Assembly: GCA_046563655.1 (NCBI GenBank)
Contig: CM102287.1
Span: forward strand, 9,486,001 to 9,550,000
Length of the DNA: 64,000 nucleotides
Origin: Yuukianura sp. NJ FZ-2021
Taxonomy: Eukaryota
Direction of reading: 5' to 3'
Shown here: piece after piece, positions 1,627-61,800 of the stretch
How the letters are laid out: each line of letters opens with the position of its first letter
How positions within the stretch are numbered: position 1 is the first letter of the stretch
The notes under the pieces: model-generated
Databases searched by the model: none
What the model was told of the DNA's origin: nothing
The model's input: the letters and a program-made list of their open reading frames with translations, nothing else
Program-made: the position numbers and the translations under genes

Positions 1627-3958
1627 GTCCGCGTCAAACGCCGCACCCCCTCCATCCCTTTGTGCCATTTTGATTTTCAAAACCAAAGTGCCTACTCTCT
1701 TCTTCGTGACACTTGAGCCAATCACAAGCTTCCGTTCCCCCCTCAAATATTCCACCCCCGAAAAAGTGTTACTTTCACCCGCTAAATCCACATCATAAAC
1801 TCAAAATATCCATTAAACCCAAAAACAACTTTCAAATGTAATTCAAGAACCAAAATCATCTTTCACCAAAACCTCTGCGCCCACGACAGTTTTCAAAATT
1901 ATGCTTTTGTTATACCACAATCATCAAATTTTGAAGAGTACAAAAATAGGTAGGCGTACCAAGAATCCTGTTTGTTGGTACTCAAGTTTTTAGTTTTGGG
2001 TAAAAATTTTCAAAAAAGACGATTAAAAATTTTCATGCATATTCCCAACTCCTGTCTCCGGAAAATCTGGTTTTATATCTGATTTTATCACACAAAAATT
2101 AGAAGAAGTTTTGAGTGGCATTGACGCGATGCATACTTTCGACAAATTGTGGAGTTCGAAATTTCAAATTTTTTGAGGAAATCTTCAAATGTTAGTCCTC
2201 CAAACATGAATTTGAGTACAAACTGGCGGGAATTTCTAACAATAATCCAGAAGAAATGCTAAGCTTTAATGACGCTTTTGACCTAAGTCACTTTAAAGCA
2301 TCATCTCCTCCTGATGACTCTATCAAAAGCTACAATAAATTTAAAGAAATCCTCAAATGTTAGGCTAGGTAACCTAATGTTAGGCTACTAAACTAACTAG
2401 CCTAAGGTAAACCTAACTTAAAAGAAGAGAAAGTAAAAGGAAATGGTCATAATCCAGTATTCTGGACTCTAAATTTCCTGCATGAGTCTCTCTCAAGTAC
2501 ATTTTTGTTGCCTGGAGAAAGTCCTCAAGGAAGTGCCTCAATCACGTCAATTTAAAGCCATTTCCTCTCCATTTTTTAAAATTTTGAAAATTTGCGGGAA
2601 AATGGCAGCAGTATAGTAGTTTTTTTTCTCTCTAAAAAGTCAAGACTTGTAAAAATTGTGTTATCGTGTGAAGATGATTTAGGGGGGAAGGATATTAAAT
2701 CTGGTTGTGGCTGGATTTAGCAGAGAGAGATGTGATTGGTTCCATTCATTTTGGACGTGTCACCCTTTGGCACTATGGAGTGTGTAAATCCCCTTTATCC
2801 ATAATGTTCCAGAATATTCCAATATCCTAACTTATGTCTCCAAAGTTAACAATATGTTGACTCTTTACCTTATGCATGACTCTCACCCTGGGAGAAAGTA
2901 AATGAAGAGTTATTCAGAAATAGAAAGATGAAACCACTCTCACCAGACTCAAAGTCCAATGTTAATACTTTTTCAAAATAATTTCATCCCGACGACATAA
3001 TACTTTATACGTTGTAAACATAGTGTTGTGCACTATGAACTTTATTTATGACGGCAAAGTGTCAAAGGAAAGTTTTGTAACTAAAATTGAAATAAGAAAT
3101 TGCACAAAATGGAGCATTTGATCTCCTTCTCTTGAAAACATAATCCTTGTCTGTCAATTTCAAGAATTTTGAAGCCTAGGAACGCCAAATCTTTCAATTT
3201 TATGAAATAGAAATTATTTTTACTTTAATTTTCTTTTCGTTTGGATAAGAAGCATCTCCTTAAAGCGTCACTTTCACACCATTAGTGAAAGTCTGACATC
3301 AAAAGAGAAAGTTCTAGTCACACTAAAAGCCACGCATCTCGCCCACCCTCCCACATCCCACTCCCGTCCAATTCCCAATCCTATGTGGTATGGTATTTTC
3401 GTGTACTATGATAAATAAAGGAACATTATAAAATATAATACAAAAATATTATTCATAAATTAATATATATTTTCACCACTTTTTATTTTGTTGTGACCTA
3501 TAACATGCTTTTCTTACAAAAACAAATATGTAGCCAGCAGAAGTAAGGAATAGGAAACATTTGTTCTCGTGATAATTGTAATTTCTGGTAATTTATGGCA
3601 CTTACTAAACTTAAGTAAAATAGTTCAATTATTGTTGTTTCTTCTGTATCATTAGAGTGTGCTTAAGTTTTTAATTCAACTTGCAATTAAATTTTGTCAC
3701 CCTTTCGTTCTCATAATTGCAAGTAAAATTTGTTATTATTTATTTTTTAGCATGGGTACAAGCCTATAACTTGCTTCACTTCAACCGCATGTTTGAAGAT
3801 GCTTTTGGATGTGTGTGTGGGACGCGGGAAAGACAAAGGAAGAGGCAAGAGAGAAATTGAGGTCATCCGTAAAAGTTCACTGCAAGATTGGGATTTTCAT
3901 CTTCTAATTTGTTACAGTGTGTCGATTAATAATCAAGGTATCTAAAGGTCATTGAACC

Positions 3959-6152: not shown

Positions 6153-9100
6153 TTAGATGAACCATTCTCGCTTGACCTGAACAGAGTGCCCTGTGACCCC
6201 GTGCACAGCAGCTTCGTTCGGGTCAGCAGCATCAGCAGCCCCTTCATCCTCTTGTGTCAAGTACTCCCCCTTGTGCTGACTGTAGTAGCGACCAATCAGA
6301 ATGCACATGATGATGATTCCAAGGAAAATCAAAGCCAAAATTCCTGAAAACAAAAAATCATCTTCATTTTTAAAAAGTACTCAAAAAAAAATTTCAGTTT
6401 TCAAAAAGGTCTCAAAAAACTTTGAGTTTTCAAAATTTTCCTTACCTCCCAATACAGCACTCTCAATGACAGTATTGAGGTAGTATTGATCGATTTTACT
6501 TTCGTCAAGGTCAAAGGGCGGTCGGATTTCAGTTATTTCTGGAGGGTGAGTCACGGGTTCAACGCCACAAAAATCTTCTTGCAGTGCAGCTACATGAAAA
6601 AAAAAAAAACATTTTAAAAGGTCTCATGTTGAATCGTATCACAGAAGAGATATGGGCTTGCCAGGGCATGCTTTTTTCATTGGAATCGTATGATCAAAAA
6701 CAATTTAGCCTAAAAGTGAAAAGGTCAAAAAATGAAAAGATCAAAAATTGAGAAGATCACCAACAAAACACAGCTTGGCCAAACCCAACCTACTATTCGT
6801 CAGGATTGACATTTTCACTTTTTGACCTTTTCCCCTTTTGATCGTTTCACTTTTTGATCAAATTATGTCCACCCGAACAAGTTGTGGAGTTGATACCTCG
6901 TCGATTCAAGTTTTTTTTGGAACTAAACTTTTTCTTTTTGAAAAAGCATTTTGGCAGAACTTTTTGAAAAGGCGTTGCTTGCTTACGTGGATAAGATCGG
7001 ATGTTGGCAGGTGGATTATCCTGGAAGAGATACTTGAGTGGGAACTGATCATCAAATTGGACTCTGGAGATGCATCCAATGAATCCCTCCCGCATAGATT
7101 CGTTTCTTCCGATGTACAAATGCTCAATGTTGTTGAACTGTGCGTCAGCAGAGGCTTTCACATTGAACACAACTTCATACGGCTCCAGATTATCTGCATT
7201 GATAATCAACTTTGTTCCGGAATTTGCTCTCGTGATGGTCACATCGTGGTACTAAAACACAAAACCAAAGTAATTAAACCAAAACTGAGTAGTTAATTGA
7301 CGAATTGTTGCTAATTACTTGTCCAGTTGCAAAGTTATGGTCTGGATAAATGATTTCTTGACGTTCAAATCCAAAGTCAAACACCAGTCTCAAGTGACCT
7401 GAATTTGACACGAGCAGGGTCAAGTACTCTTGAGTGACATTCGAAAACAAGCCAACTAGGAAGCCTTTCGGCTCCGTAGTTGTGAAACCCACTCGTAACT
7501 TTTCGGCTATCGTCGATTTGTAACTTCCGTTAAAGTCAAATCTGACCATCGAGTGACTCTGCATGTTCACACCAATTTCTGAAAACAAAAAAATTATTTC
7601 AAAATTTTTGTTTTCAAATTTTTTTCTAAAATCTCACCGTCGGCACAAATCGGGCCCTTGAACGACGTGTATCTGCAGTCGCATGTGTAACTGTTGTACC
7701 CCTCTGTACAAGTTCCTTCGTTCAAACAAGGATTGGAGTCACATCGTCCAGTACATCCCATCCCAACTCCTAAAATTTCAAAACAACATTTCAAATTTTG
7801 TAACTTCAAAATTTTGAAACTTTCAATTTTTTTGAAAATCACCATATTCCTGTCGTTCCACTGCCGTTTTCAAGTCGAGAAAAACTCCATTTAGAGTAAC
7901 AGCTCTCATGCATCCAACGTATCCTTCCCTGTACTCTGTCGTGGCTCCCAAGAAGAACTCTGATGTCAACTCCATTGTCCTGACATGACCATGGGCCTGT
8001 GGCCTCGTGTCACTCGCCGATCCATCTACAACCACCTTAGCCTGTTTCCGATTCTGCTCAATCAAAATAGAATGCCACTCGTCATCGTTCAAGCGATTGG
8101 AAGTTTTGACGTTCAGCGTCCAGGATTCCACTTGGGAAGACAAGTATGGCTCGAATTGAACTTGCTGTCCATCTATCAACACAAATCACGAATTACTTTC
8201 ATGAAATTGCGAATTACTTTCATGAAATTACGAATTACTTTCATGAAATTACGAGTTACTTGATCATGAAATACTTTACTTACTAATTAGTGAAACTTTG
8301 ATGTAATCTTGGGGTCCTTTGACATGCAAAAACACAGCGTTGAGTGCAGTCGTTTTGAATTCGAAATAAATATCCCAGGAGTGACCCAGTTCAGGCGTGG
8401 GGAAAGTCAGCACAGCATCAGTTAGACGAAACGTCACGACATTGTCATACAACACTAAAAAATATTATTATTATATAATATTCTAATATAAAATTAAGTT
8501 TTTATATTATTAATTTACCATTTCCTTCACAAATTAAATCTCCTAGACTAAATTTCCCCCGCTTGTCATCCAGCAGCGTTCCAGTGTCACCAAACCGAAG
8601 TTGCCGAACTGGCAAGTATTCTTTTTCTATCAACCAACCGCTGTCCGAAACTTCGGCATCCAAACCTACAACGAGTGAATCAAAATTTTTCAAAATCTTC
8701 AACATTTACAAAATTTTAGAACAATTTCGAAAATTCACACAATTCCTCCATACCTCCATCGCAGTTGCACCAAGTATTTTCTATGACACACTGGTTGAGT
8801 ACTCCACATTCACATTTCCGACTCCCCTGCGGAGCATTTCCCCAGTAGTCCATTTGTTGGTTCTGTCTACTCACCCACCATCCACTCGGACGAAATATCT
8901 GCGTCTCATCATCTACAATTCAAAAAACGCTCAAACATGCTCAAAATTCTTCAAAAAACAAAATTTTGAAAAAATTACAAGGTGAGTTGAACAATCTCGA
9001 CTGGCGACATCTATACTCAACGCGCTGTTTGCATGAAGAACTCCGATTGACCACAGCTTCAATCTGAGCTAGCGATCCATCATACACAATGTCCTAAAAA

Positions 9101-12100
9101 CAACAAAAATCAGGTTAAATGTTTGAAAAGTCGTTTTGGATTTTTGGAATTTGGAATTATGTTATTTAAAAAGAGTGATTTTCCTACTAAACGTTTAACT
9201 TTTTGGAATTTGGAAATATGCCATTTAGAAAGAGTGATTTTCCTACTAAACTTTTAACTTTTTGGAATTTGGAATTATGTTATTTGAAAAGAGTGATTTT
9301 CCTACTAAACTTTTAACTTTTTGGAATTTGGAATTAAGTTGTTTAAAAAGAGTGATTTTCCTACTAAACTTTTAACTTTTTGGAATTTGGAATTATGTTA
9401 TTTAAAAAGAGTGATTTTCCTACTAAACTTTTAACTTTTTGGAATTTGGAATTAAGTTGTTTAAAAAGAGTGATTTTCCTACTAAACTTTTAGCGTTTTG
9501 GAATTTGGAATTAAGTTGTTTAAAAAGAGTGATTTTCCTACTAAACTTTTAGCGTTTTGGAATTTGGAATTATGTTGTTTAAAAAGAGTGATTTTCCTAC
9601 TAAACTTTTAACTTTTTGGAATTATGTTATTTAAAAAGAGTGATTCGGAAATCTGAATGATGGAGATTTGCGGAATTCGGAGTGATTCGTTACCTCTGAG
9701 AAGGAACCAGGATCTTGGTATCCATCTACTTCAGTAAGTTCAGCGGAATTGTGTCGAATGTGTGTTTCAGTTGGTCCACCAGTGAAATACTGACAGATTA
9801 CGCTAAAGGGATCCAGTGGCCCACTTCCATCTGGATCAATCGTCACTTCTGTCCGCCGATTTCCTGGATTTGTGTTTCTATAGGCTTCGCAACTCGTTGA
9901 GTGAAGAGCTACACAAAAGAGATCAAAAAAGTTAGAATTTTAGAAATTCTTTTTCTTTAAATTTCGAAATTTTTAAATTTTCTCGTTTTTACATGAATAG
10001 CAAGTGGCTCCAGTGTATCCAGTTCCGGTACAGTCGCATTCAAACTCAGAACTGGTTTGTCTACAAATTCCACCTACAAAACCAAAACCAGAAACAAAAT
10101 TCAAAATTCTAAAGTTAAAAATTCATCTTTCAAAATTATGAAAAAGCGATTTCAGTGTTATTACCGTGTTCGCATGGATTTGGTGAGCAGCGATCCATCA
10201 TTTGACAAGCATCGATTACAACAGCGTCATCACAACAGTAGTGCTACAAAAAAAAAACGTCATTTCAGAAATTTTTCCAGAAATTCAAAAAAGTTGAGAC
10301 TTTTTCTGAAAAATCGTTTTGTTTAGACTTTTTTTCCTAACCTCTCTCACTTTGAAGTCTTTCGGATTCCGAAAAGCTCCATCAACCGAAATTTGACGCA
10401 GACAACCCACGAATCCTCTCATGTTGTTCAGTTGTAAGGAATTGAACGTTAGGAATACCGGGTCAACTCCGCCCATAAAGTACACATCTCCAGTGACAAT
10501 GTCCATGAGTCTCGTTGTCACCACCATGCGCTCATCCACACTCAACGTCACCCGGTTCTTCCGAACTGTCACTTCCAGATTATGCCAAAGTCCATCATCA
10601 AAAGTCTCTGCAAAGTTTTCCAGTGTCAATCTTGGAGAGTTTTCCACTTCCAAGTCCACAAGAAGTTTTCCTTTGTCCATGTACACCTAAAGTCATAAAA
10701 ATCGTTAAAATTCAATCAATTAACACTTAACATTAATTAAAATTTCAATTAACCTTGATGTATCCAGGTGAAGAGAACTTGTGAAACAAAAGAGTCACGG
10801 ACGGTTCGAAAGTTCGAAAATCAAAAGACACATTGAGATGAAGTAGCCCAAAAAATCCAGTCAGTTTCAAAAATCCTTTGGGTTTTGTGAATGTCACTGG
10901 AACTATATTTGAATCTGGACAGTGATGGAGCGTATGATGAGAATAAAATCGCTCTGTATCGTAGTACGAAGGTTCTCTCAAATTCGAAATGACGTTAGTT
11001 TCATTCAAATAAAGATTCTCGAGACATCCAGTAAAATTTTTCGTTGTGCGAAGTCCTTCGTCGATGTTCGGAACACCACCAATGTACAACTGTTGACAAA
11101 AATCATCCATTTTTTAAAAATTCGTCCAATTCTTTTAAAATTTTGAACTCTTGTTCTAAAAAACTTACAACTTTGTCCAAATCCAGAACTTGGAAATCTC
11201 CTTTGACAATTGCTTTGAGTTCAACACGATCAATTGTAAAGGAAACACGGTTCAGCCACCGGTCAATTCTCACATCATGCCAAAGTCCGTCGTCCAGAAG
11301 AGATCCAGATGATATCGATGTCATTTCTCCAGAACCTAAAGAAAAAATTTTGAAGTTAAGTCTAAGTTAATTAATTAAGTTAGTTAATTAATGTTTTTAA
11401 TGTTTTTTACCTAAATTGAGATTAAGTACCATCCTGTTCTTGTGGAGTTGCAGAGCCAAGAAATCTCCTTGAGTTCCATGCCCATAAATTATGACTCCGT
11501 CGGCCTCGGTTGTGCGCAGACGAAACTGAATAATGTCCCGTTGTGACTGAATCCGATTTTCAGTCAAGTTCTTGTACACCAAGGCACTTCCATTAAAAGA
11601 CAGCGTTTCACTGACTATAAAACAATTAATATAAAATAATACATTATTATTCAATTAATATTTATAATAAATATTTCCTATACTTACCGTAATCACACCC
11701 ATAGAGTTCAATTCTCATTGAAATCCTTTCACCCCATCGTGTCGGATTGATTCTTATGAATTGTGCGATAATTGGCGTGTCAAATCGATTGACCTTTGGA
11801 GAATCTCCGTTTTTGTTTCCTTCGAATAACTGCAAATCAAAATCAAAATTTCAAAATGAAAATTTCATTTCAACCTAAATATTTTAAGGATTCCTCTTTT
11901 TTTGTCCAAATAGTTCTAAACTACAAGCTTCACCAGATAGTACCAAAACCCAGGAGGTCAAAGGTCAAAACCAGTTTTTAGAAAAGTTTAAGCAGTTTTT
12001 TAAAGTTACCTCTCTGACATTTTTCCAACTACTGCCGTCGAAAGAGTGCTGAAGCTGAAATTGGCGTACAAATTCCTTGCCACCACAACCCCGCAACACC

Positions 12101-14117
12101 ACTTTCCACACACGAACTGTTCGCTTCAAGTCCACGAACAGCGATTGGTAGAAATTGTTTACTTTTGGAGACCAGCAAGTAGGAGCTTTTGAAATTAGAA
12201 ACAGAAAATACCAAAACCACAAGTCAAAATTTTGAAAAAATGAGAATTTCGAAAAACGACCAAAACTACACCAGAAGGTAAAGATTAAGTGAAAGTGTGA
12301 GAAGAAACTAACTACTAAAAGAAAAATGTACCAAAGCAAAAGAAGCGTTTTTTCTTGAAAAATTTTCAAAAAAGTTGGTTTTTTAAAAAAACTTAAAACA
12401 AACCTTGGCATTTCCATCGTTCTCTTTGAACACAGCATAGTCGAGGCCATTGAATCCAAATGAAATTGTGAATTCCTTGACAAAATCCTGAGAGTGCGAA
12501 CGACCTTTGACCTGGATTTGTGTTACGTTCTTGACTTCATGAAAGTCAATGATGAGCCCTTCACGGAAGTCATTGTTCGCTGGAGCCCAGGCAGTACCCG
12601 CTGTCAAAATAAAGGTCAAAAGGTCATGGACAAACAAGGTCAAAAGGTCATGGGTAAAAAGAGGTCAAAAGGTCATAGGTTAATGTTAGGAAGGTCAAAG
12701 GTTAATAAAGTTCAAAAAGCAAAATAAAAATAACGTGGCTTTCTCCATTTCTGTTCCCAAATTTCCCTTAAGCCAGTTTTTATTGAAATTGTAATTTTTA
12801 AGAAAAAATTTTGAGCAAGATGCTGGATGCTGATACTTGAGCAGCATTTTTTCATTTTCTGAGTCTTGCACCAGGTTTTTCGTCTTTTTGAAAATAGGCA
12901 CCGAGGAATCGTTCAATTTCGTCGTCATTTTGAGCCAAAAAACTTGAGCTGTCAATCAATTCATCAAAAGTCAACATCCGAAAGTTTCCGAGCGAGGTTT
13001 CGGCCGTTTCCGGAGGTATTTCTCGAGCGATAGCCGCAACATGCTCGTTGTCCAGAATGTGTTCTTCGAATGTCCAGTTTTTCAATACTTGGCAATCTAG
13101 TTTTCCAATTGTGCTTGTCAAAGGTTGACCTTGACCTTGAACTAGGTCACCTCTAGTTTCAAATTCAATTCGTTCCAGATCCAGATTCAATCCAAGGCCG
13201 ACTGCTTTGACATAACTTTCTTTAAGTGTCCAATGCCGCATGAACGCCTTGACTTGTTCTTGTTCTCCCGTCGGTTTTCGGATTAACTTCCATTCGTTTT
13301 CCGAAAATTGCCGAGTCATCAATCGGAAGAATTCGTTGACATCTTTTCCACCGGAGTACTCCAATTTCATGACATCCACTCCAATAAGTGCCTTGGGATC
13401 CATATGAGCAGCCAGTACGACATAGTCACCTTGGTGACTCACGTTGAGACTCAAGTCGCTATTGGCCGGTTGTGTCAGAATAGGCTTGTTGTATGAATCT
13501 CGTTGAAACTGGATTAGATCATTGGCAGTTCCCAGTGCTTCCCGAACACATTTCCTCAGTAGAAGTCGACCAATCAGGGACGAGTGAGCATCGCGACGAA
13601 ATACGAACTTGCCAATCCTGGTGACCTCTTCAGGCTGAATGAGTTGAATGGCATGACGAAGTTGAGATGGACTTGGTTTGTTTGACGGAGTATGGACAGC
13701 CCAGCGGATTGGAAATGACAAAGTATTGGGCATTTTGGGAACAGAAATGGAGACAAATCTTAGTAGTAGCAGCCTGGATCCTCCACTTGTTTAGAAAGTG
13801 TGATTGCAAAACGTTTTTATAAAGTGCTTTAGAAAGGAAACTGAGCTGGAAGCAATTTAGCACTCACAGTCTATCCTGGCGTCTTCAGCTGATCGTCCAG
13901 GAAGTTGAGATGTGGCTGACAGAGATGCTCGGTATAGCAGAGGTTCGGCACAGTAGTCTGTAACATTGAAAATCAATTAATCATTACTTGAATTACATCT
14001 TCCTAAGGTCACAGCTCAGTGACCAATGCATTGAAGTAACTTTTTGTCTAAAAACTTACCGTAACTTTGAACGTTAATCACAAGCAGTGTAGAGACAACT
14101 AGCAGAACAGTTTTCAT
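6153..14117 (-). CDS. Nrx-IV: Neurexin IV (Caspr family): signal peptide, discoidin, LamG, EGF, fibrinogen-like, TM, 4.1m and PDZ-binding tail
   Basis: MKTVLLVVSTLLVINVQSY exon 1; FIRINPTRWGERISMRIELYGC; IDPDGSGPLDPF; CDSNPCLNEGTC; HKGEYLTQED; C-terminal REWFI. Confidence 0.95.
8187..8270. repeat. 21-bp tandem repeat (about 3.5-4 copies) in a Nrx-IV intron
   Basis: Unit CGAATTACTTTCATGAAATT(A/G). Confidence 0.85.
9141..9645. repeat. 59-bp minisatellite, about 8.5 copies, in a Nrx-IV intron
   Basis: Unit TTTTTGGAATTTGGAATTATGTTATTTAAAAAGAGTGATTTTCCTACTAAACTTTTAAC repeated head to tail. Confidence 0.95.
12010..12185 (-). CDS. Nrx-IV: Alternative (mutually exclusive) discoidin-domain exon of Nrx-IV
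   Basis: AG acceptor and GTAAC donor; same phase 1-to-0 as exon 12404-12600; encodes PTCWSPKVNNFYQSLFVDL...EFVRQFQLQHSFDG, paralogous to GTAWAPANNDFREGLIIDF...DFVKEFTISFGFNG. Confidence 0.8.
12852..13733 (-). CDS. AASDHPPT: Sfp-type 4'-phosphopantetheinyl transferase, intronless, nested in Nrx-IV intron 2
   Basis: 293-aa ORF with NVSHQGDYVVLA, IGVDVM, F.RHWTLKESYVKAVGLGL; lies inside intron 12601-13867. Confidence 0.93.
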   Translation of the reverse strand: MPNTLSFPIRWAVHTPSNKPSPSQLRHAIQLIQPEEVTRIGKFVFRRDAHSSLIGRLLLRKCVREALGTANDLIQFQRDSYNKPILTQPANSDLSLNVSHQGDYVVLAAHMDPKALIGVDVMKLEYSGGKDVNEFFRLMTRQFSENEWKLIRKPTGEQEQVKAFMRHWTLKESYVKAVGLGLNLDLERIEFETRGDLVQGQGQPLTSTIGKLDCQVLKNWTFEEHILDNEHVAAIAREIPPETAETSLGNFRMLTFDELIDSSSFLAQNDDEIERFLGAYFQKDEKPGARLRK

Positions 14118-14941
14118 TGTAAACACAAACGGTGCTGTTGAATCATCTACGATTAGGGTATGTCGCCAAATTTAATTTCGTTGATGTTTTATCACTTCGT
14201 TGCTCAAAGATGTGCTCCTCTATGTGACCTCGTGACCTAAAATATAAACAAATGACACAATACATGAGTGAGTATGACAAATCAGGCTTAACATAAACAA
14301 ACAAGAGTTCAATTCCTTGGAAGACTATTAATAGTTAATCGTTCCGACTCGTCAATTAATCTAATCTACCCCTCACGTTCGCAGAATCCCAGCTTAACAA
14401 ATTCGCCACCCCCTTCTATGATCTAATTTCCTGGAACAACTCCGATCCCGTTAAAAACCAGTACACTTCGATTTCCTTCAGTCTAATTAACTTTGTTAAT
14501 TAGTGAAACAGTGTACAACTAACAATCAATCAATCGTTGAGTTACTCAAGTAAGTTACTGTCAACATTTTTTGTTTTGATATTTCAAATGGGAGGGGTGA
14601 CGGATAAAAATATTTCAGGAATTACTCACTACTTATCAGAGGTGGGCTTTTTTTTTCAATGTGCAAAAAGATGCGACAAAGTCAAAGGTGTGAAAAGTTA
14701 ACACCAAATTATCAATTACAATGAGTAACCCATTTGCCAATTTGAAGAATCTAAACCGAACTAAACGAAGCACAGAAATTTGCACAGAATGCATACGAGG
14801 TGCTTGTGCGCATAAGAATCATTAGGGTTTCAGAAGTGGTAGAACGGCAGAGGTCAAAGAGGTCAAATTTAGATTGAGTGTTTCTAATAACATTAGTACT
14901 GACAAATGACTTTTAATATTTTCACACATTAGCAGCTTAAA

Positions 14942-17512: not shown

Positions 17513-20500
17513 ATGGATCCCGACAACGAAGAAGATGAAGAATCGTACTACCGACGAGATTTGGGAGACGAAGGCAGAGATCGCGATAGAAGACGAAACT
17601 CCCAGGGAGGGCACAGTTCCGGCAGCGGTCGCAGCTCATACCAGGGAGGAAGGCAAGAAGCACACAGCAGTAGAGACTATGGCCGCGGAGGAGGCGGTAG
17701 CTACGATTCCAGTAGACGTGGTGACCGAAGAGACGACAGTTACCGCTCCAGTCGTGACTCTCCAACTCGTGAACGTGATGCCGCCTCTTGGCGAAGCAAA
17801 GATAGAAAACGAGACCGAGATGACGATTATGACATGGATGACTTTGGCAGGCAGCGGAGAGGCAGAGAGCACGATGATCCTTATAGAGAGTCTGACCGTT
17901 TTTCTGGAGACAGTCGATCCAGAGGTAATACCATATTGCCATTACATGCTTAATCTTAAGTTGAACGTGTTTAATAACGTTGCAATTTTCACTTTCCAGG
18001 AATTTCTCCAGCAAAACGTTTTCGGAATACTTCGCCCAGCGATGAAGGTCGTCCTCGAGCTTCTGATTACGTTCCAAGCAGCAGAGCTATTCTAGGAGAC
18101 GAGCGAGAACTAAAACACGGCAGTCCATCATCGTCACCCGGCAGCGAGAGAGGACGGAGACCAACCCGATTAGAAGACATTGGAAGGCTAGGACCGAGGG
18201 TGCGAAATGTTGGCGATAAGAGAATGGTTGGAGCGGAAGGTCGTGCTGGAGCAGCAACCTCAAGGGCATTTGAACGAGCCAGGGACAGATTCGATAACGT
18301 TAGATCACGCGCGATTGATTTGAATAGCAAATTGGGTACCTCGGGCTGTCCAGTCGATCTTATAGCCAACTTCTTCCCGATGCTGACGAAACCCACTTGG
18401 TGTCTCTATAATTACCATGTCAGTTATTCTCCAGATGAAGACAGCACGCCGATCAAGAAACGTTTACTCAGAACTCACAATGCACTGATAGGAGCCAACA
18501 TTTTTGATGGATCAAATATGTATACAATTCGACGTCTGGAGCCCGAGGTAAGCTTAAAGATTGACAAAGTGACATTATTAATCGATTAATCTAAGTTTCT
18601 AACACTTAATCATTCTTGTTTAGCCTATGATCCTAACTTCCAAGAGGGAATCTGATCAAGAAAACGTTCAGCTGACGATTACCTTAGTGTCTCAAATTCC
18701 CCCTGGAGATGTCCAGTATCTCCAATTCTACAATATCATCATTCGAGCCTGCATGAGTGCCCTTAAATTTGAAGAGTTAGGACGACACTTTTACGACAGA
18801 AACTCTTCAATCAAGATGCCTCAACATCACCTCGAACTCTGGCCAGGGTACATCACAACCCTGAGAAACTACGAAGACACTTTGATGTTATGTGTCGAAG
18901 TGACACACAAAGTACTGCGACAAGATACTTGTCTCAGTATAATCTATGCTCATCAAAGGGAACGTGACAGTCGTGAAAAAGCTGCAGAAGTACTTGTTGG
19001 AAGTATCGTCATGACCCATTATAATCGGAAGACTTACTGCGTAGACGATATCGACTGGACCAGAAATCCTCTATGTTCGTTTGACCTCAAAGGAAAAACG
19101 ATTTCTCTAGCAGATTACTACCGAGCCAAGTATGACATTAAGATTAAAGATTTGAACCAACCCCTACTTGTGTCAAGACCGAAGAAACATGCTATTCACC
19201 GTGGTGAAACGGCACCCATTCTACTAATTCCAGAACTGTGTCATATGACTGGCCTATCCGAAGACCTGAGAAGAAATTACAAAATTATGAAAGAGTTGTC
19301 GACTCATCTGCAGCAAGCTCCAGAACGACGGGTCGAAAATATTCAAAACTTCATGCGTCGTCTGCGGTGCTGCACAGACGTAAGTCAATTTTTCAACATC
19401 TTAATTCACTTTCTTAATTTATCGTTGATTAATTAACTACGATTACTCTTAGGTCCGCGAAATGATTTCCAAATGGGGCCTGGAATTTGAAGGGAGGTTG
19501 GTTCCAGTTCGTGGACGAATTGTGCCATCAGAGCAAGTGATATTTCGAACTGAATCGGATGCAGAAAGTGTCAAAGTGGGGCCAAGTGCTGATTGGACAT
19601 TTGCTTTCAAAAGTGAGTAAAGTTTCAAAAAAGTACAAAAAGAATTGAAAAAATAAAATTTTTAAGTTAAAGTCTATAATTTCAATTTGTGAATTTTTCC
19701 AGGTAAGAACATGTACGCCAGTATGAGGATGACAAGATGGGCACTGATTGTAACTCAAAGGGATTCGCGTGGTGTTGACCTCCTTCTGGACACGATGCGA
19801 ACTGTGGGAAGGACGTTGGATTTTGAAGTTTCACAGCCACAAGCACTGTAAGTTTACAAAAAAAAATATGGTGGACATGTAAACATGTTGAGTGATGCTA
19901 AACTTGATTTTTAGACTGAAACTTCCGGATAACAAGGTCCAAACTTTCGTTAACGCCGTGAACGACGTCATGTCTTCTCATAAGTATGTGGATATTATTC
20001 TCATTATACTGCCAACTATGCAACTGGAATTGTACTCTGCTGTTAAAAAACGGTGCAGTGTGGATTATGGAGGTGAGAAATCGTTCGATTCTACTTTGAC
20101 TTCTAACGTGTAAGTAACATTAATTTGATTGATTCATTGAATCATTTGTGTTGTAGTCGTTTCACAGTGTTTTCTATCCAAGCATCTTCAACCGAATTCC
20201 AAAGGTGAGTTTGGATATTTTGTTTTCTATAAGTGGACTTGTAATGCGTGTTTTGCTGCCTGAATTTTGGAGCTAATCGTAATTGTTTGTTTTGTGTTAG
20301 GTTTGATGTCAATTATAACGAAGGTCATTGTCCAAATAAATGCTAAGTTAGGTGGCGAACCTTGGGCTACTCACAATCCACTGAAAGCATCCGTAAGATC
20401 ATTGATTTTTTGGTGATTTACTTAAGTAGTACGTTGATTTTTGATTGGTTTTGAATTACTTTCCTCAGCATACCATGATACTTGGATACGATGTGTACCA

Positions 20501-26204: not shown

Positions 26205-26264
26205 TTTAAAATCAATGTTATAATTTTAATTATAATTATTATTAATTATAACATTGATTTTAAA
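26205..26264. repeat. Perfect 21-bp inverted repeat with an 18-nt AT spacer
   Basis: TTTAAAATCAATGTTATAATT (26205-26225) and AATTATAACATTGATTTTAAA (26244-26264). Confidence 0.9.
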
Positions 26265-37717: not shown

Positions 37718-38480
37718 ATGACTTTTGAGTGCATTCTGCTGCTCTCCTTAACTTTGGCGGGAAATTTTGAAAAAGTTGAATCAGGAGTTTTGATATTTTT
37801 GATTATCGAAGAAACACCAAAGTTTAGAGCAATTTCTGCAGAGGAGGGTCAACTAGAAGTGAGGTCAAGGTCACCGAATGTAACAGAGGTCAGCGAGATA
37901 CCAAAAGTTCCAGAACCTGGCGAACCGTAAGTGTAGTTGCAAAAATTTTGCGGAATTTGCAAATTTGCAAATTTTGGAAACACAGGTTGACAATTGGTGG
38001 AGGGAGACGCGGATTTCAAATAGGAATTGCTTTGTGCATTGTTTGGGTAGTCGTTGGACTCAAAATTATTTTGTGTTGCACAATTGTACTACGGCATGAA
38101 CCCAGACGAGCTCCAATCATTCGGCACAATCTCAGGACGCAACAAGGTAAACAGTAAAACGTTCAACAAAATTGTTGTAAATTTCACAAAATGTTGAAAC
38201 AAGTTTCAATTGCATTTTAATTTGTATTTTTCCGATTCATTTCATGAAAATTCTAGTTGGACCATCCGGAAATGCGAGAATTCGTCGTGAGGAGTCGAAC
38301 TTAATGCATTTGCCAGAGGAAGAGGAAGAAGATGTGTCTGAGAGGTCAAAGGTCACGAGGTCAAAGGTCACAAGGTCAGAGGTCACCGGCCCAGCAGTGG
38401 CTGCTGGCCAGTGTGCGTTGAGTGGACAAGAATCAACGACCCCACCGCCCCCTTATTCCTCCCTTGGAATCAATCTCTAA
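37718..38480 (+). CDS. Small single-pass membrane protein with a cytoplasmic PPPY motif
   Basis: Three phase-compatible exons; TM segment IGIALCIVWVVVGLKIILCC; C-terminal TPPPPYSSL. Confidence 0.6.
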
Positions 38481-38735: not shown

Positions 38736-40161
38736 ATGAACACAAATTGGCACATCCTACTGTCCGTCATCTTCGTGACCTTGGCAGGTCATTTCAACTT
38801 GACCTTTGGAGTTGACCTTCCAAACAAAAGTGGTAAACATGAGGATCGTGCTAAACGGTGGGTGGATCTGGCAAAAGTCACTGACGACGAAGATTCCCTC
38901 AAAAACGTACCAAAACCATGTGAGGAAATCGTAAATTTTGAAATTCTTGGCAAATGAATAATTTCCAAAAAAAAATCGAATTTTTATGAATTTCACTTTG
39001 CAGCAAAGCTGTTCTGTGGAAATGACACGAAAAGGCGCGTGACCTCTCCAGTGTCCCTTGGAGGTCCAATGGGGGTCAAAGGTCAAGGTCAACAGGGAAG
39101 TGGTGGCGGGACTAATCAAAAGTCAAAAAATCAAACACTTCGGTTCAACAAGCGCTATACAAAGATCCGTGACCTTTTGTTCTACCAAAACGATGGAGAA
39201 AAGTGTAAGGTCAAGGTCAATTTTTAGGTCAAATTGTGGTCAGCTTATTTCTGAAGATCAAGTTTTTTGAAAAAACAGTGACATTTCAGCTTTATGAAGA
39301 AGACAGTTCAGACGCCTCAGTTCGTGGAGAGAACTGGGATGACGAGTACGTTTTAGCCAAAGGTCAAGGTCAAATTTAAGTTTTAGAGGTCAAAGATATT
39401 AAAGTTTAAGATTGTTGACCTTTGACCTCTCAGGTCAGTTTCAGTGGTGCCACAGTGCCTGGTGTGGAGCTGGACATAAGATTCATGGAAGAATTTTTCC
39501 AGTTGAACTGGAACTGATTCACTACAGGAGGTCAGACGAGTCACTGGCTAAAGCTTGGAAGAAAGGCGGCGTGCTCATCATCTCTGTACTTCTGCGCGTA
39601 AATTCTGTACAGATTTTGTAATAGTTGACCTTTGACCTTTTCACCTTTGACTGACCTTTCAGCTTGTCTCTAGAGGCGTCCCGACCTTGACCCCGTTGCT
39701 TAGCAACATTCCGTACGTGGCTCAGCCTGGACCGCTCAAACTGCTTCACGCGCCGGTAAATTTTCGTCAACTGCTGCCGTCTGGTGATGGATTTTTTACG
39801 TACGAAGGATCCTATACCTTCAGCCCTTGTTACGACAGAGTCCAGCGTATTGTCTTCGAAACACCAATTGGAATTGATGATCAACAGGTAAGCAAGGTCA
39901 TTGACCCTTAAGTACCCCCGGGGTAACTTTGAATTGACCTTTGACCTTCCACAGATGAGCTACTTCCAATACCTGCTGTACGAAGACAAGACGCCAATGA
40001 AAAACAACTTTGCACCGTTACAGGAAGCCGGTGCACGCACTGTAACGTACTACGATCATGGATTTACAATCGTCACGCGCCAAAAGCTACTCAAAGTTGA
40101 AAAACGTTCGCATAAGCATGGCGAACTGAAACGCCGAAAATTTGTGCCATCGGGACAGTAA
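38736..40161 (+). CDS. Secreted alpha-carbonic anhydrase-related protein lacking zinc ligands
   Basis: Signal peptide; GQFQW...GAGHKIHGRIFPVELELIHY; FFTYEGSYTFSPC; NNFAPLQ. Confidence 0.85.
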
Positions 40162-40362: not shown

Positions 40363-41447
40363 ATGTATTTCTTGTTGTTGGTGTACTTTTGCGTACTCGG
40401 GGTCAAAGGTCAAGAGGGTACTCCAGTCCCTACTCTGCCTCCCGAAAGTGACCCACCCACCCCAGCACCGATAGTCGTGTCACCACCGTTGGAAATTACT
40501 CATACGGTAAGTCATGGCCAACATAGTAACTGCCCAATGTTCATTTTAGGATTATCAACTACCAGAAACCGGAAGCCACTAGGCAATTGTGGACAGTACT
40601 GGACACTGCTGGCAGTAATTTTTGGAAAATAGCTAAATATATCGTAAAATAAATATTTTAGTAAATATTTCACTGATTTTTAGTACAACAACATATGTTT
40701 TGCCCCTCTAGTCATGAACCTCACACAATTCCAGGTGACCTTTGAAATTGAACTGGCTCCCAGCGGCAACTCACAGAAACAAAGTCTGGGGAATTTTACC
40801 GTTGGACTTTTCGGTAAAACCGTACCGAATACCGTTGCTAACTTTGTTAAATACGCCAAGAGTCGAACTAAAGGAAACCAGTATGAGGGCACTGCGTTTC
40901 ATCGGATCATCCGCGGATTCATTGTCCAAGGTGGTGAGCTCAATGGGACCGACGGTGAGAGTGGATTGTAAGGTCAAAGGTCAACTTTCTCTGAAACTCT
41001 TGTCACTTAATCCAACAATAACCGAAGTTTGAAATTTTAGCACCGAATCTGCCCTGTGGTTCCCTTCTGAGAACTTTGAGCTGAAGCATATCGGAGCCGG
41101 TTGGGTATCGATGGCAAACGGCGGGAAAAGCAACGGGTCTGACACAAACGGCTCACAGTTTTTTATTACCCTGGCTCCTCAGTCTCAATTGGACGGACTT
41201 AACGTTGTGTTCGGAAAGGTCATAGCTGGAATGGTAAGTTTTCTTAAAAATGTCAAGGTCAAGGTCACGAGGTCAACTGAATTTTTTCAATTTTTAACAG
41301 CCAGTCGTTCGTAAAATGGAAAAGGTCGAAATTGATCCAAAAAATGACAAGCCCGTGAGAAGTGTTGTCATCAAGAGTTGCAAAGCAGTCGACCTGCAGA
41401 ATCCTTATCCAACTACACTGAACGAAGCAGCTAACGAATTCATCTGA
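40363..41447 (+). CDS. Secreted cyclophilin (CypB-like), divergent
   Basis: Signal peptide; [61 protein letters not shown]. Confidence 0.9.
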
Positions 41448-41689
41448 GAGGTCACGAGGTCAAAGGTCAACTTCTAAACATATACATTGATTTACTTAAC
41501 ATTAGTTAACAGAATCGATCCGTAGTAGTAAATGCAATTATGAAATCTCGCGGTTAGCATGGATATTTTTGTGTTCTAGTTTTTAACTTTGTTGAATTTT
41601 TCGTTTTCAGTCATCTTTTTTTCCGAATTATATTTTTGGTTAGATTTTTTTTTGTTTTTGAGTACATTTTTTCGAGAAATCTATCTAGC

Positions 41690-58800: not shown

Positions 58801-61800
58801 AAATCAAATTGTGGTTAATTGTTTTTGATGAATTGAGTTGGCTTAAATGGGAATTAATTTGTTGGAAGATGTTGATTGACAGTTTTTTTTTTGTGCAAAG
58901 AAGCCCAAGTGTAAATAAAAATTTGAATTTTGGTTGAAGGAATGATGACAAATTGTTCCTTGAAGAACAAAACTTAAAAAAAATCTGTTCAGAATATTTT
59001 GAAATGCGGCTTAACTAAAAAAAAGTCTAAAGTGAAAGGGTTGAGAAGCTCTCCGAGAAAGGCGTAGAAAAAAGCGGTAACCGCAGGATCGGATTTCGTT
59101 TTTTGAATTTGGTTTGGAATGGAAAGTGATTAGGGATAATTTTCTGGTCTGTTTCCCTTGAGAGTCACTTCAAGTACCCATGGCCCTTAGAAGACCTTTT
59201 CCGATTCTTTTCTTACTGAAGTTGGGCTAAGGGCCCACTTTTTTTGAAATTTCAAAAGGGCCCCACGTAGGATTTTGAAACCTTTCACTCATCAAAACTG
59301 TAACAATAAAAACCGAGACGTGTGGAAAGCTGTGTTCACATTTTGTATAATAATTTGGCAAAAATTTTATTCAAATTCAAAATTTTGATACAGAAAATTT
59401 TCGTATGATTTTTACGTCACGTAAACATAATCGGTGTAAGGTAATGCTTTTTTTGGTTTTTAGGTTTTTATTGGGGAAAATTTGGATAAAAGTATTCCTA
59501 AAAATGAAAAATTGAACGAAATTTTTAATTTTTGATTAAAGATGTTTCATGACGCTGAGAGAAGTTGTAAATTTTGTCGAGTTTCATGTTTTCATGTTAT
59601 TTTTAATAAGTTATTTAAATTTTGTATATAAATTTATACAAAATTATGAAATGACGTAGTTTTTGTTGTACTGGTAATATTTATCCTTGTGTGATTTATT
59701 GTACAAAAAATGAAAGGAAAATGGGATTTTGATTTAAACTTAGTTTTTTGTGTATAAGTTTGAATGAATAACGTGAAGAAAGGGTGTGTATCAAAATCGC
59801 ATAACTGTTTCCCATCATTATTTATGGGTTTGTTCATACACAAAAAAAAAGTTCAATAACTTTCACAAAAGTCATGCTTTCTTTTCATCAACATCAAATA
59901 AAACACATAGTAAAATGCATTTTTAATGCTAAACTATTTGAAAAGAAAGCACTAAAAGACTATAAATAAGACTAAAGTTAAAAATTAAAAAAGTGTTAAA
60001 AAGTAAATGCTAAAATATTTAAAATTTAAAAACGTCAAATTTTTCAAATTATACTATCTACGTTTCTTCTAGCTCACAGTACTTTTTCTAGTCCAATTTT
60101 TTGTTTCTGGAGTTGAATAGAGTCAAAAAATCTTTCAAAATTTTGACCAACCTTGTTAAATTTGTGACTAATTTGAAAATTTTTCCACTGCATTTGCTCT
60201 ATTTAAGTCTAGAAAAAAGTTCAAAAGAGAAAGAACTTTAAAAATTGCACTTAATTTTTCACTTTTGGTGTGTCTGTCATCGCATGACGAAAATGAAGGT
60301 TACCGTAACCTTTAAAGGGTTACCGTAACCTTCAGTAACCCTTATGCTACAAAGTTAATTGAGAGTCTTGGCATCTTCCTAACGAGTGGGGTGATTGTGG
60401 AAGGGAGCTGCAATTCGACATGACCCATAGTCAATATTATGTGAAACTGAATCTCTAATAAGAAGAAAAGATTGAGACAATGATTAAGCTCTTGCGCATA
60501 TCTTATTTGAACAAAAGCAAAAACCATTTTTTAAAATTTCAAAAAAAGACAATTGAACAAGGGCATTTCGAAATAAAAAAAAAACTGATTAGTTATTCTG
60601 TTCACGTCAAAGTAAGAGAGCGATGATTATCCATCTTCTTACGATTCGGAGTTTTTTCTTTCCGTTCTGCCGGTTGGAAGCGTCTTTTGTCCAGTCTTTT
60701 CGGTTCTGTCTATTTACTCAAAGGATTCCCCTACTCTCTCCCACATTTTTTTACTTCTCAACTTTTTATAATGCAAATTTATCACATTTTATGGAACAGG
60801 AACAAAAGATGGTTTAAAATAAAGAAAAAAGTTACGTGCTAGTACGAAAATGTAGATTTTTAGAGAAGAGATTCTGTTCTCCTGTGACAAAGTCGAAACG
60901 AACAAGGATTAATCGACTTTTGAACTTGGGAAAAAATTTTAACCAAAATTTTGGTTACTCATGAAACAAAATTTTGAAAAAACATAATCTTACTCTGACT
61001 AAAGATTAGGCAAAATATGAGTTTGTATTTGTAAAATTCGGGCAATTCAAAATCTGGCGAGTTTTGCAAAATTTCAGAGTATTTGAAAACGACGCTAAAT
61101 TTGAATAGGCGCGCAAATTTTGCATAATTTTTGAAAAACGTAAGTTGTGAACTAAGGTTTTTAAAAATTAACATTCAGATTTTTTTTGGTCCAGGTTCAC
61201 AATTATTGTGCAACGTCGTGGGAATTTGCGAATTTGCGTACGTTTGCAATTTCTTTATTGTTTGTTATGTGCAAAAAAAATGCAAAGAGAGGGATCTTGC
61301 CTTTCATTAGACGCAGCGCGATCCTTTCAAATCGAAATTTCGCAACTGGAATTCAAATGGCGAATTTTATATTTCTCTTGGCTTTGCTTTTTATCAGAAG
61401 AAGAATTAAGAACGTAGTTGCACGTTTTGAAAAAAATGTTATATGAATATGGAGAATTTAAAAAATGGTTTTTGCATCACAAAGAGTTCCGTTTTTTTTT
61501 CTTTATGATTTTTTGTCTTGTAAGATTTGAGATCGTGAGAGTTTGTATTTGTAGGTTTGAGAAGGAGTTTTATTGAAGTTGTGTTATGAATAATACTTTT
61601 TAGGAGGGTTGAAGTGCCAAGATGACAAAGGGAATCTCAAGCACAATCATTCACAACCTCTGATTTATTAGGCTCCTCTCCAGGGTAAACAGACAGCAAA
61701 ACTACTCTCACACCTTTACCCCCACGGGGAAACAGACACAATGAAAAAAAAATCAAAATTTTGAATTTTCAAATTAAAATTTCTAAATTTTTGTCTTTTA

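Follow-up and report, generated by a model that had tools for sequence, protein, structure and literature searches.

The DNA analysed here, called the window throughout, is a stretch of 64,000 nucleotides (nt) of contig CM102287.1 from Yuukianura sp. NJ FZ-2021 (assembly GCA_046563655.1, positions 9,486,001 to 9,550,000). On its minus strand, an intron of a gene of the Nrx-IV/Caspr type (the host gene) holds a complete second gene, read in the same direction, for an AASDHPPT-type 4'-phosphopantetheinyl transferase, and this nested gene is bracketed within the intron by two complementary segments, arm 1 and arm 2. The locus was compared with that of one relative, carried on a metagenome contig of 6580 nt (L001), and all interspecies comparisons below are between these two species. 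The relevant parts of the host and nested genes are, in order of transcription:

13868..13957, minus strand: host exon 2, 90 nt, its protein 97% identical to that of L001 1585-1683
12601..13867, minus strand: host intron, GT..AG, 1267 nt, holding the nested gene and both arms; the exon reading frames join across it
12852..13733, minus strand: nested intronless gene, 293 amino acids (aa), AASDHPPT-type 4'-phosphopantetheinyl transferase, identified from its open reading frame (ORF), Pfam domains and homologues
12779..12784, minus strand: AATAAA of the nested gene, candidate polyadenylation (poly(A)) signal, read from the sequence
12404..12600, minus strand: host exon 3, 197 nt, the first exon of the mutually exclusive pair, matching F5/8 type C profile positions 24-86 (E = 1.3e-08)
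12010..12185, minus strand: host exon 4, 176 nt, the second exon of that pair, matching F5/8 type C profile positions 24-82 (E = 1.6e-08), same phase

The nested ORF is intact and begins with an ATG at 13733-13731 on the minus strand. Both transferase domains, PF22624 (AASDHPPT N-terminal domain, E = 9.4e-30) and PF01648 (ACPS-type domain, E = 4.2e-18), were found above the Pfam cut-offs in this single ORF, and the conserved columns are kept in an alignment with six relatives. The AATAAA hexamer that follows the ORF is an established element of animal poly(A) sites. The second-closest transferase protein (P0002, 58% identity) is encoded on a contig of 1134 nt, and a protein-profile scan of viral contigs gave no transferase relatives among 55 pattern matches.

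The host gene lies on the same strand as the nested gene, with its ATG near position 14118, only ~385 nt upstream of the nested ATG, and a first intron of 102 nt. Successive exons give discoidin (F5/8 type C) and then laminin G matches, which is the layout of Nrx-IV/Caspr, a type defined by a signal peptide, a discoidin domain that contains a mutually exclusive exon 3/4 pair, and laminin G domains; over the exons examined, the host was assigned to this type. Exons 3 and 4 match one part of the same profile and both have lengths of 2 mod 3, and they are therefore taken as a mutually exclusive pair; a pair of this type is also present in L001, at 2864-3060 (197 nt) and 3265-3446 (182 nt). Exons 3 and 4 of Drosophila Nrx-IV are mutually exclusive (PMC11893892, citing Rodrigues et al. 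2012). The neighbouring introns of the host gene are short and measure 102, 218 and 174 nt in the window and ~80, 204 and 201 nt in L001, and the gaps between exon matches farther downstream are mostly 40-110 nt, with a single gap of ~580 nt in the window. The start of the intron that holds the nested gene (13856-13867, minus strand) is identical at 11 of 12 positions to L001 1679-1690, a match that runs past the donor consensus into a CTAAA word. A splicing regulator of the STAR type, HOW for example, may bind there.

The two arms form an inverted repeat around the nested gene. Positions 12742-12761 are the exact reverse complement of 13734-13753 (20 nt, found both in the sequence and by repeat search), and the extended arms, 12742-12767 and 13728-13753, are complementary at 24 of 26 positions (92%), separated by a spacer of 960 nt. 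The initial annotation of this stretch had described the same 20-bp perfect repeat with its 24-of-26 extension, placing arm 1 directly before the transferase ATG (13733) and the start of arm 2 18 nt past the AATAAA at 12784-12779, and all of these positions were reproduced from the sequence. The arms and their cores are:

13728..13753, minus strand: arm 1, upstream on the transcript, with its perfect stretch of 20 nt at 13734-13753; ends directly 5' of the nested ATG
13736..13746, minus strand: arm 1 core, 11 nt, identical in L001 at 1769-1779
12742..12767, minus strand: arm 2, downstream on the transcript, with its perfect stretch of 20 nt at 12742-12761; lies between the AATAAA and a U-rich stretch
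12749..12759, minus strand: arm 2 core, 11 nt, identical in L001 at 2762-2772 and reverse complementary to the arm 1 core

The repeat is unique in the window. At up to 3 mismatches the 20-mer matched the 64-kb window at two places only, which are the two arms (0.01 matches expected), and none of 100 dinucleotide shuffles contained two or more matches. Each 11-nt core occurs solely at both arms, in the window and likewise in 6.6 kb of L001. The remaining long inverted repeats of the window are mostly A/T-rich or of a low-complexity, AGGTCA-type composition. A search of Rfam 15 at gathering score returned no matches in the window or in L001. A pattern in which AATAAA is followed, after a gap, by the arm 2 core was matched by 117 viral stretches, which were set aside as chance matches; none of them encodes the enzyme and none contains both cores.

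L001 was obtained by a metagenome scan that gave one locus from 82 pattern matches. Gene order is kept on this contig, with the upstream neighbour followed by host exons 2 to 15 and with exon 1 read directly, and the transferase gene (286 aa) lies on the same strand and in the same intron, whose length in L001 is 1186 nt. The transferases of the window and L001 share 69% identity by tblastn, and 202 of the 285 aligned codons encode the same residue (69-71% overall). The two loci are orthologous. At four-fold degenerate sites in codons with identical residues, 28 of 83 nucleotides are identical (33.7%), and neutral positions are therefore saturated between the two species.

Against this background, the inverted repeat is found in L001 at the matching places (1768-1783 and 2758-2773, 15 of 16 positions complementary). 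It comprises a 12-bp Watson-Crick run, made up of the core and one further C-G pair, and a pyrimidine:purine extension rich in G.U pairs. The longest word common to the 5' parts of the two introns is the 11-nt arm 1 core, a length reached in 2 of 300 shuffles, and the longest common to their 3' parts is the 11-nt arm 2 core (4 of 300 shuffles). When introns 1-4 were taken together, 40 7-mers were conserved in the same segment, and the five reverse-complementary pairs among them all fall within the cores.

Outside the core the two species differ in sequence and yet pair, with nine more perfect pairs in the window and four Watson-Crick pairs out of five in L001. Since a whole-intron MAFFT alignment misaligned the arms, the flanks were aligned separately and compared in a table anchored on the core. 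Changes on both sides keep Watson-Crick pairing at -9, -6, -1, +12 and +14 and lead to a G.U pair at -2, and pairs are lost in L001 at -5, +11 and +16 to +18. The initial annotation would have given up its reading if the arms were missing or failed to covary in relatives that keep the nested gene; the reading withstood this test in L001, the one relative compared, where the 11-nt cores are identical and the flanks differ but still pair.

The helix is also placed in much the same way relative to the signals around it. The core-to-core distance is 987 nt in the window and 993 nt in L001, and the first A of the AATAAA precedes the arm 2 core by 25 nt and 26 nt, respectively, with a U-rich stretch after arm 2 in both species. 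Given the usual architecture of animal poly(A) sites, this arrangement places arm 2 over the predicted cleavage region. Arm 1 begins 114 nt from the 5' splice site, and arm 2 ends 141 nt from the 3' splice site (90 and 90 nt in L001), so that the helix would cut the intron to ~255 nt (~180 nt in L001). An effective length of about 250 nt had been proposed initially for the 1267-nt intron, and the sum of the two distances (114 + 141) agrees with it.

Among ungapped helices that join the 5' non-coding part of the intron to the 3' one, the arm pair ranks first in both species, with scores of 51 in the window and 47 in L001 that were reached by none of 300 mononucleotide shuffles in each. When the 5' part of the intron was compared with the whole transcribed strand of the 64-kb window, arm 2 was the top partner (51, next best 34); in L001, arm 2 (47) came second to a local palindrome within the 5' part (56), and the next long-range candidate scored 39. 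Whole-intron partition-function folding paired the cores with a probability of 0.99-1.00 in both species, and in the window 19 of the 20 perfect pairs had pairing probabilities of 0.84-1.00, the outermost pair being formed at 0.60. In the window, the calculated duplex energy was -40.2 kcal/mol for the sense strand and -39.6 kcal/mol for the antisense strand; in L001 the values were -44.7 and -38.4 kcal/mol. This predicted advantage of the sense strand points slightly towards the transcribed strand.

The helix is thus encoded, conserved against a saturated background, dominant in silico, and fixed relative to the splice sites and the AATAAA. It has the properties of a conserved long-range intronic helix: two complementary segments lie in one intron, both are kept in the orthologous intron of L001, and the structure is stable and outcompetes alternatives, as judged by whole-intron folding and duplex energies.

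We hypothesize that, in the pre-mRNA of the host, the two arms make up a conserved long-range RNA stem, which would loop out the nested gene, approximate the splice sites to ~255 nt and bury the nested cleavage region, and we lean, if only slightly, towards this reading of the sequence. The arms would pair in the host pre-mRNA over 20-26 bp in the window, and in L001 over a 12-bp run with 15 of 16 positions paired, to close a loop of ~960-990 nt that would enclose the whole transferase gene. The helix would place the donor of exon 2 at ~255 nt from the acceptor of exon 3 (~180 nt in L001); most other introns of this gene measure 45-220 nt. With the nested cleavage region held in double-stranded RNA, transcripts from the host promoter would escape cleavage there. 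The intron ends at the first of the two mutually exclusive exons, and the helix may also bias the choice between exons 3 and 4. An influence on exon choice had been mentioned in passing in the initial annotation, and the position of the intron directly upstream of the exclusive pair gives it a concrete form.

Several observations weigh against this hypothesis. The conservation evidence comes from one relative, L001, and the 11-bp core is invariant, so that it cannot separate constraint on pairing from constraint on sequence. The compensatory changes in the flanks carry limited weight, because arm 1 is pyrimidine-rich and arm 2 purine-rich, and by our own estimate ~3/4 of random combinations of such sequences pair; the six both-sided changes come from two species and lie in this pyrimidine:purine context, which favours chance pairing. 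In whole-flank RNAduplex calculations, 48 of 500 dinucleotide shuffles were as low as or lower than the -48.0 kcal/mol of the window (7 of 500 for L001), a statistic that permits huge interior loops and was superseded by the ungapped-helix score. In L001, the pyrimidine tract that precedes the arm 1 core is paired with a purine tract in a palindrome at 1738-1767, which could compete there with the outer part of the long-range helix. A head-to-tail junction in a contig of run X5, described below, has both of its ends in the arms and shows that DNA-level events occur there too. In Drosophila, the presence of an upstream 5' splice site is reported to silence intronic poly(A) signals in general (PMC3890989), and a dedicated mask may therefore be unneeded. 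The distance from arm 1 to the nested ATG also varies, being 0 nt in the window and 50 nt in L001. Where arm 1 abuts the ATG, as in the window, it must lie at least partly in the 5' untranslated region (UTR) of the nested gene, as the initial annotation had itself cautioned, and the nested transcript could then fold into the same helix, which would impede the making of its 3' end. The stem interpretation proposed initially is thus supported in part: selected pairing, most simply at the RNA level, and the geometry speak for it, and the 5' UTR caveat cuts against simple masking. Its functional side, namely masking of the poly(A) site, rescue from premature termination and a switch between the outputs of the two genes, stays at the level of a proposal.

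The same proximity to the nested gene underlies an alternative in which the helix acts in the transcript of the transferase gene itself, either tuning 3' end formation between read-through and cleavage or, in a mature mRNA that keeps the 5' half of arm 2, pairing the two ends of the message. This alternative fares best among those considered here, though we think it unlikely. In its favour, arm 1 ends at -1 of the ATG in the window and so lies at least partly in the 5' UTR, and the fixed spacing of 25/26 nt between the AATAAA and arm 2 ties arm 2 to the nested 3' end and not to the host acceptor. However, the 0 nt versus 50 nt between arm 1 and the ATG reveals no fixed link to the start codon, and in L001 a start-site-like motif just downstream of arm 1 would exclude arm 1 from the mRNA. 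A helix that blocked the sole AATAAA-linked cleavage site would, moreover, be self-defeating for the gene that depends on it.

More doubtful is an element that acts at the level of DNA, whether as inverted copies of a protein site (for a boundary or looping factor) or as a fragile inverted repeat that drives rearrangement. The invariant 11-bp core does resemble a protein site, and a rearranged form of the locus was observed in X5 (organism B, DNA-type contigs), where a 748-nt contig runs from 13129 to 12742 and continues from 13746 to 13387, thereby joining 12742 to 13746 with break points in both arms. The junction corresponds to a head-to-tail unit of 1005 bp, in which the 3' end of the gene and the whole of arm 2 are followed by the arm 1 core and the 5' end of the gene, and it would form a 13-bp hairpin with a 7-nt loop. 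The depth of the junction contig is 11.2, compared with 2.6-4.6 on flank contigs, although contig depth is not copy number. This suggests tandem copies with break points at the outer end of arm 2 and the outer edge of the arm 1 core, as seen in one contig from one run. On the other hand, a protein site does not predict that species-specific flanks should stay complementary within each species, and a spacer of 960 nt precludes cruciform extrusion. The core is found nowhere else in the 64 kb of the window or in 6.6 kb of L001, and the two species agree in the order and orientation of the genes.

Other contigs also end at or near the arms. Contigs of X2 and X4 that cover the downstream flank stop at 12761 and 12760, respectively, where the perfect stretch of arm 2 has its inner edge, and a contig of X1 begins at 13726. 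These ends may represent variants or rearrangements, or merely a fragmented assembly.

It is distinctly improbable, in our judgement, that the nested gene is an alternative terminal exon transcribed from the host promoter, with arm 1 on its acceptor, arm 2 on its cleavage site and the helix as a switch between the two outcomes. This is the arrangement of Nmnat, where the validated stem surrounds the proximal acceptor of a terminal exon with its own poly(A) site (PMC2724269). In L001, arm 1 ends a pyrimidine tract of ~25 nt that is followed by CAG twice and looks like an acceptor, but in the window there is no AG between arm 1 and the ATG, so that the acceptor is not conserved. The ~385 nt between the host and nested ATGs leave little space for a separate promoter; a donor upstream of the host ATG would also be needed.

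That the repeat is a neutral leftover of the arrival of the gene (transposon terminal inverted repeats or a retro-insertion footprint) or a chance match is very improbable, since, although the gene lacks introns and has an inverted repeat on either side, the arms occupy the orthologous place despite saturated synonymous sites, a neutral 20-nt match would have decayed, and chance is excluded by the shuffles. Two specific origins were examined and rejected. For a DNA transposon or miniature inverted-repeat transposable element (MITE), no direct target-site duplication is seen beside the arms, the arms have only two matches in 64 kb, and their position in L001 is orthologous. For a processed retrogene, there is no A-tract past the AATAAA, and the flanking repeat is inverted and not direct; the intronless structure alone is compatible with an old retro-origin.

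The hypothesis of a stem in the host pre-mRNA may be extended, speculatively, to a view in which the helix is a decision point, taken per transcript, that lets two genes share one strand of DNA. We consider this extension unlikely to be correct as a whole, and it is offered as one interpretation of the sequence features. When the helix forms, RNA from the host promoter would skip the inner acceptor-like tract and the cleavage site and would be spliced to the proximal exclusive exon. When its formation is prevented, whether because the transcript starts at or within arm 1 or because a protein or small RNA stands in the way, the cleavage site would be active and the enzyme mRNA would be made. 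Use of the poly(A) site would then be set by the transcript start and coupled to the cell-type-specific choice between exons 3 and 4 of Nrx-IV.

Some further features of the window were noted. Between arm 2 and the host acceptor, at 12611-12680, lie 2.9 copies of a 24-nt unit built from AAAGGTCA, which is absent from L001. AGGTCA arrays are dispersed in the window (for example at 6712-6838, 38345-38370, 39409-39443, 39623-39651, 40956-40990 and 41449-41472), and in host intron 4 the two species share, at the corresponding place, a conserved 10-nt word with this half-site; the motif resembles nuclear-receptor half-sites. A perfect 21-bp hairpin with an 18-nt loop is found at 26205-26264, and a second long-distance inverted repeat that is not of low complexity is found at 60517-60540 and 61452-61475 (24 nt, 92% complementary, 911 nt apart). 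On the plus strand, Piwi/Aubergine-like exons lie at ~17978-19436, their nearest named relatives being those of the springtails Folsomia candida, Orchesella cincta and O. dallaii (49-53% identity), which points to a probable origin of the window in a collembolan or in a hexapod of similar placement.

A gene nested on the same strand as its host poses a problem for both transcription and splicing: the host polymerase has to get past a poly(A) site that works, and the intron to be excised by the spliceosome is several times as long as the others. Among the general answers already proposed, one has the upstream 5' splice site suppress such sites and another has RNA structure assist in the rescue. 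If the stem works as proposed here, the locus would provide a test case of ~1.3 kb, with two elements that can be mutated, for the coexistence of host and nested genes and for the interplay of RNA structure, intronic polyadenylation and exclusive splicing. It would also illustrate that annotation-free scans can detect such elements from sequence, and that one metagenome contig can suffice to test their conservation.

Long-range conserved intronic helices are a known kind of element. In the literature searched, no description was found of a conserved helix that brackets a whole nested gene, has an arm on the cleavage site of that gene and lies upstream of an exclusive exon pair; the box-pair supplement of PMC2724269, which holds 202 conserved Drosophila box pairs, was outside this search. 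The closest relatives of the present helix are these Drosophila intronic boxes, each within 150 nt of a splice site and enriched in long introns and in introns with poly(A) signals (Raker et al. 2009, PMC2724269), among which the Nmnat stem has been validated with disrupting and compensatory mutants (PMC2724269). Like the boxes and the Nmnat stem, the arms are paired conserved segments in one intron, at most ~150 nt from the splice sites, and the intron is unusually long and contains a poly(A) site. The action proposed is also the same, in that distant splice sites are approximated and an internal processing site is sidelined. The Nmnat loop, however, is ~350 nt long and holds an alternative acceptor and terminal exon of its own gene, whereas the loop here is ~970 nt long and holds a complete, separate and conserved gene. 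Unlike in Nmnat, one arm here sits on the cleavage region of the gene in the loop, and the present helix is known from sequence alone.

In human genes, RNA structure has been hypothesised to counteract intronic polyadenylation at pairs of conserved complementary regions (PCCRs) (Kalmykova et al. 2021, PMC8052449). The present case resembles these in its long-range intronic pairing, in the poly(A) site within the loop, and in the rescue of the host transcript by structure and splicing together. The human case is a genome-wide statistical association; it is not linked to nested genes, and the arm is not placed on the cleavage site. Helices of the box type, some of them tied to putative poly(A) sites, can also be regulated and thereby serve as switches, as shown for MIMOSAS, the microRNA obstruction of splicing stems (PMC13092977). 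MIMOSAS differs from the present helix in that it involves a microRNA regulator, and none is known here.

Dscam-type clusters of mutually exclusive exons use competing docking/selector helices, with one selector for each alternative exon. Docking/selector helices are mentioned in the introduction of PMC2724269. The present locus is similar in having a long-range intronic helix beside a mutually exclusive exon pair in an arthropod gene. It differs in that arm 1 has a single strong partner (51, next 34), with no second partner before exon 4 and no conserved complementary word in intron 3, and a docking/selector system was rejected because of this single partner. A further parallel is given by self-splicing introns with a loop-borne ORF, in which a coding sequence likewise lies in a large intron loop, with a short closing helix that holds the intron ends close together. 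In those introns the ORF serves the intron, whereas here a spliceosomal intron carries an unrelated gene of a housekeeping type.

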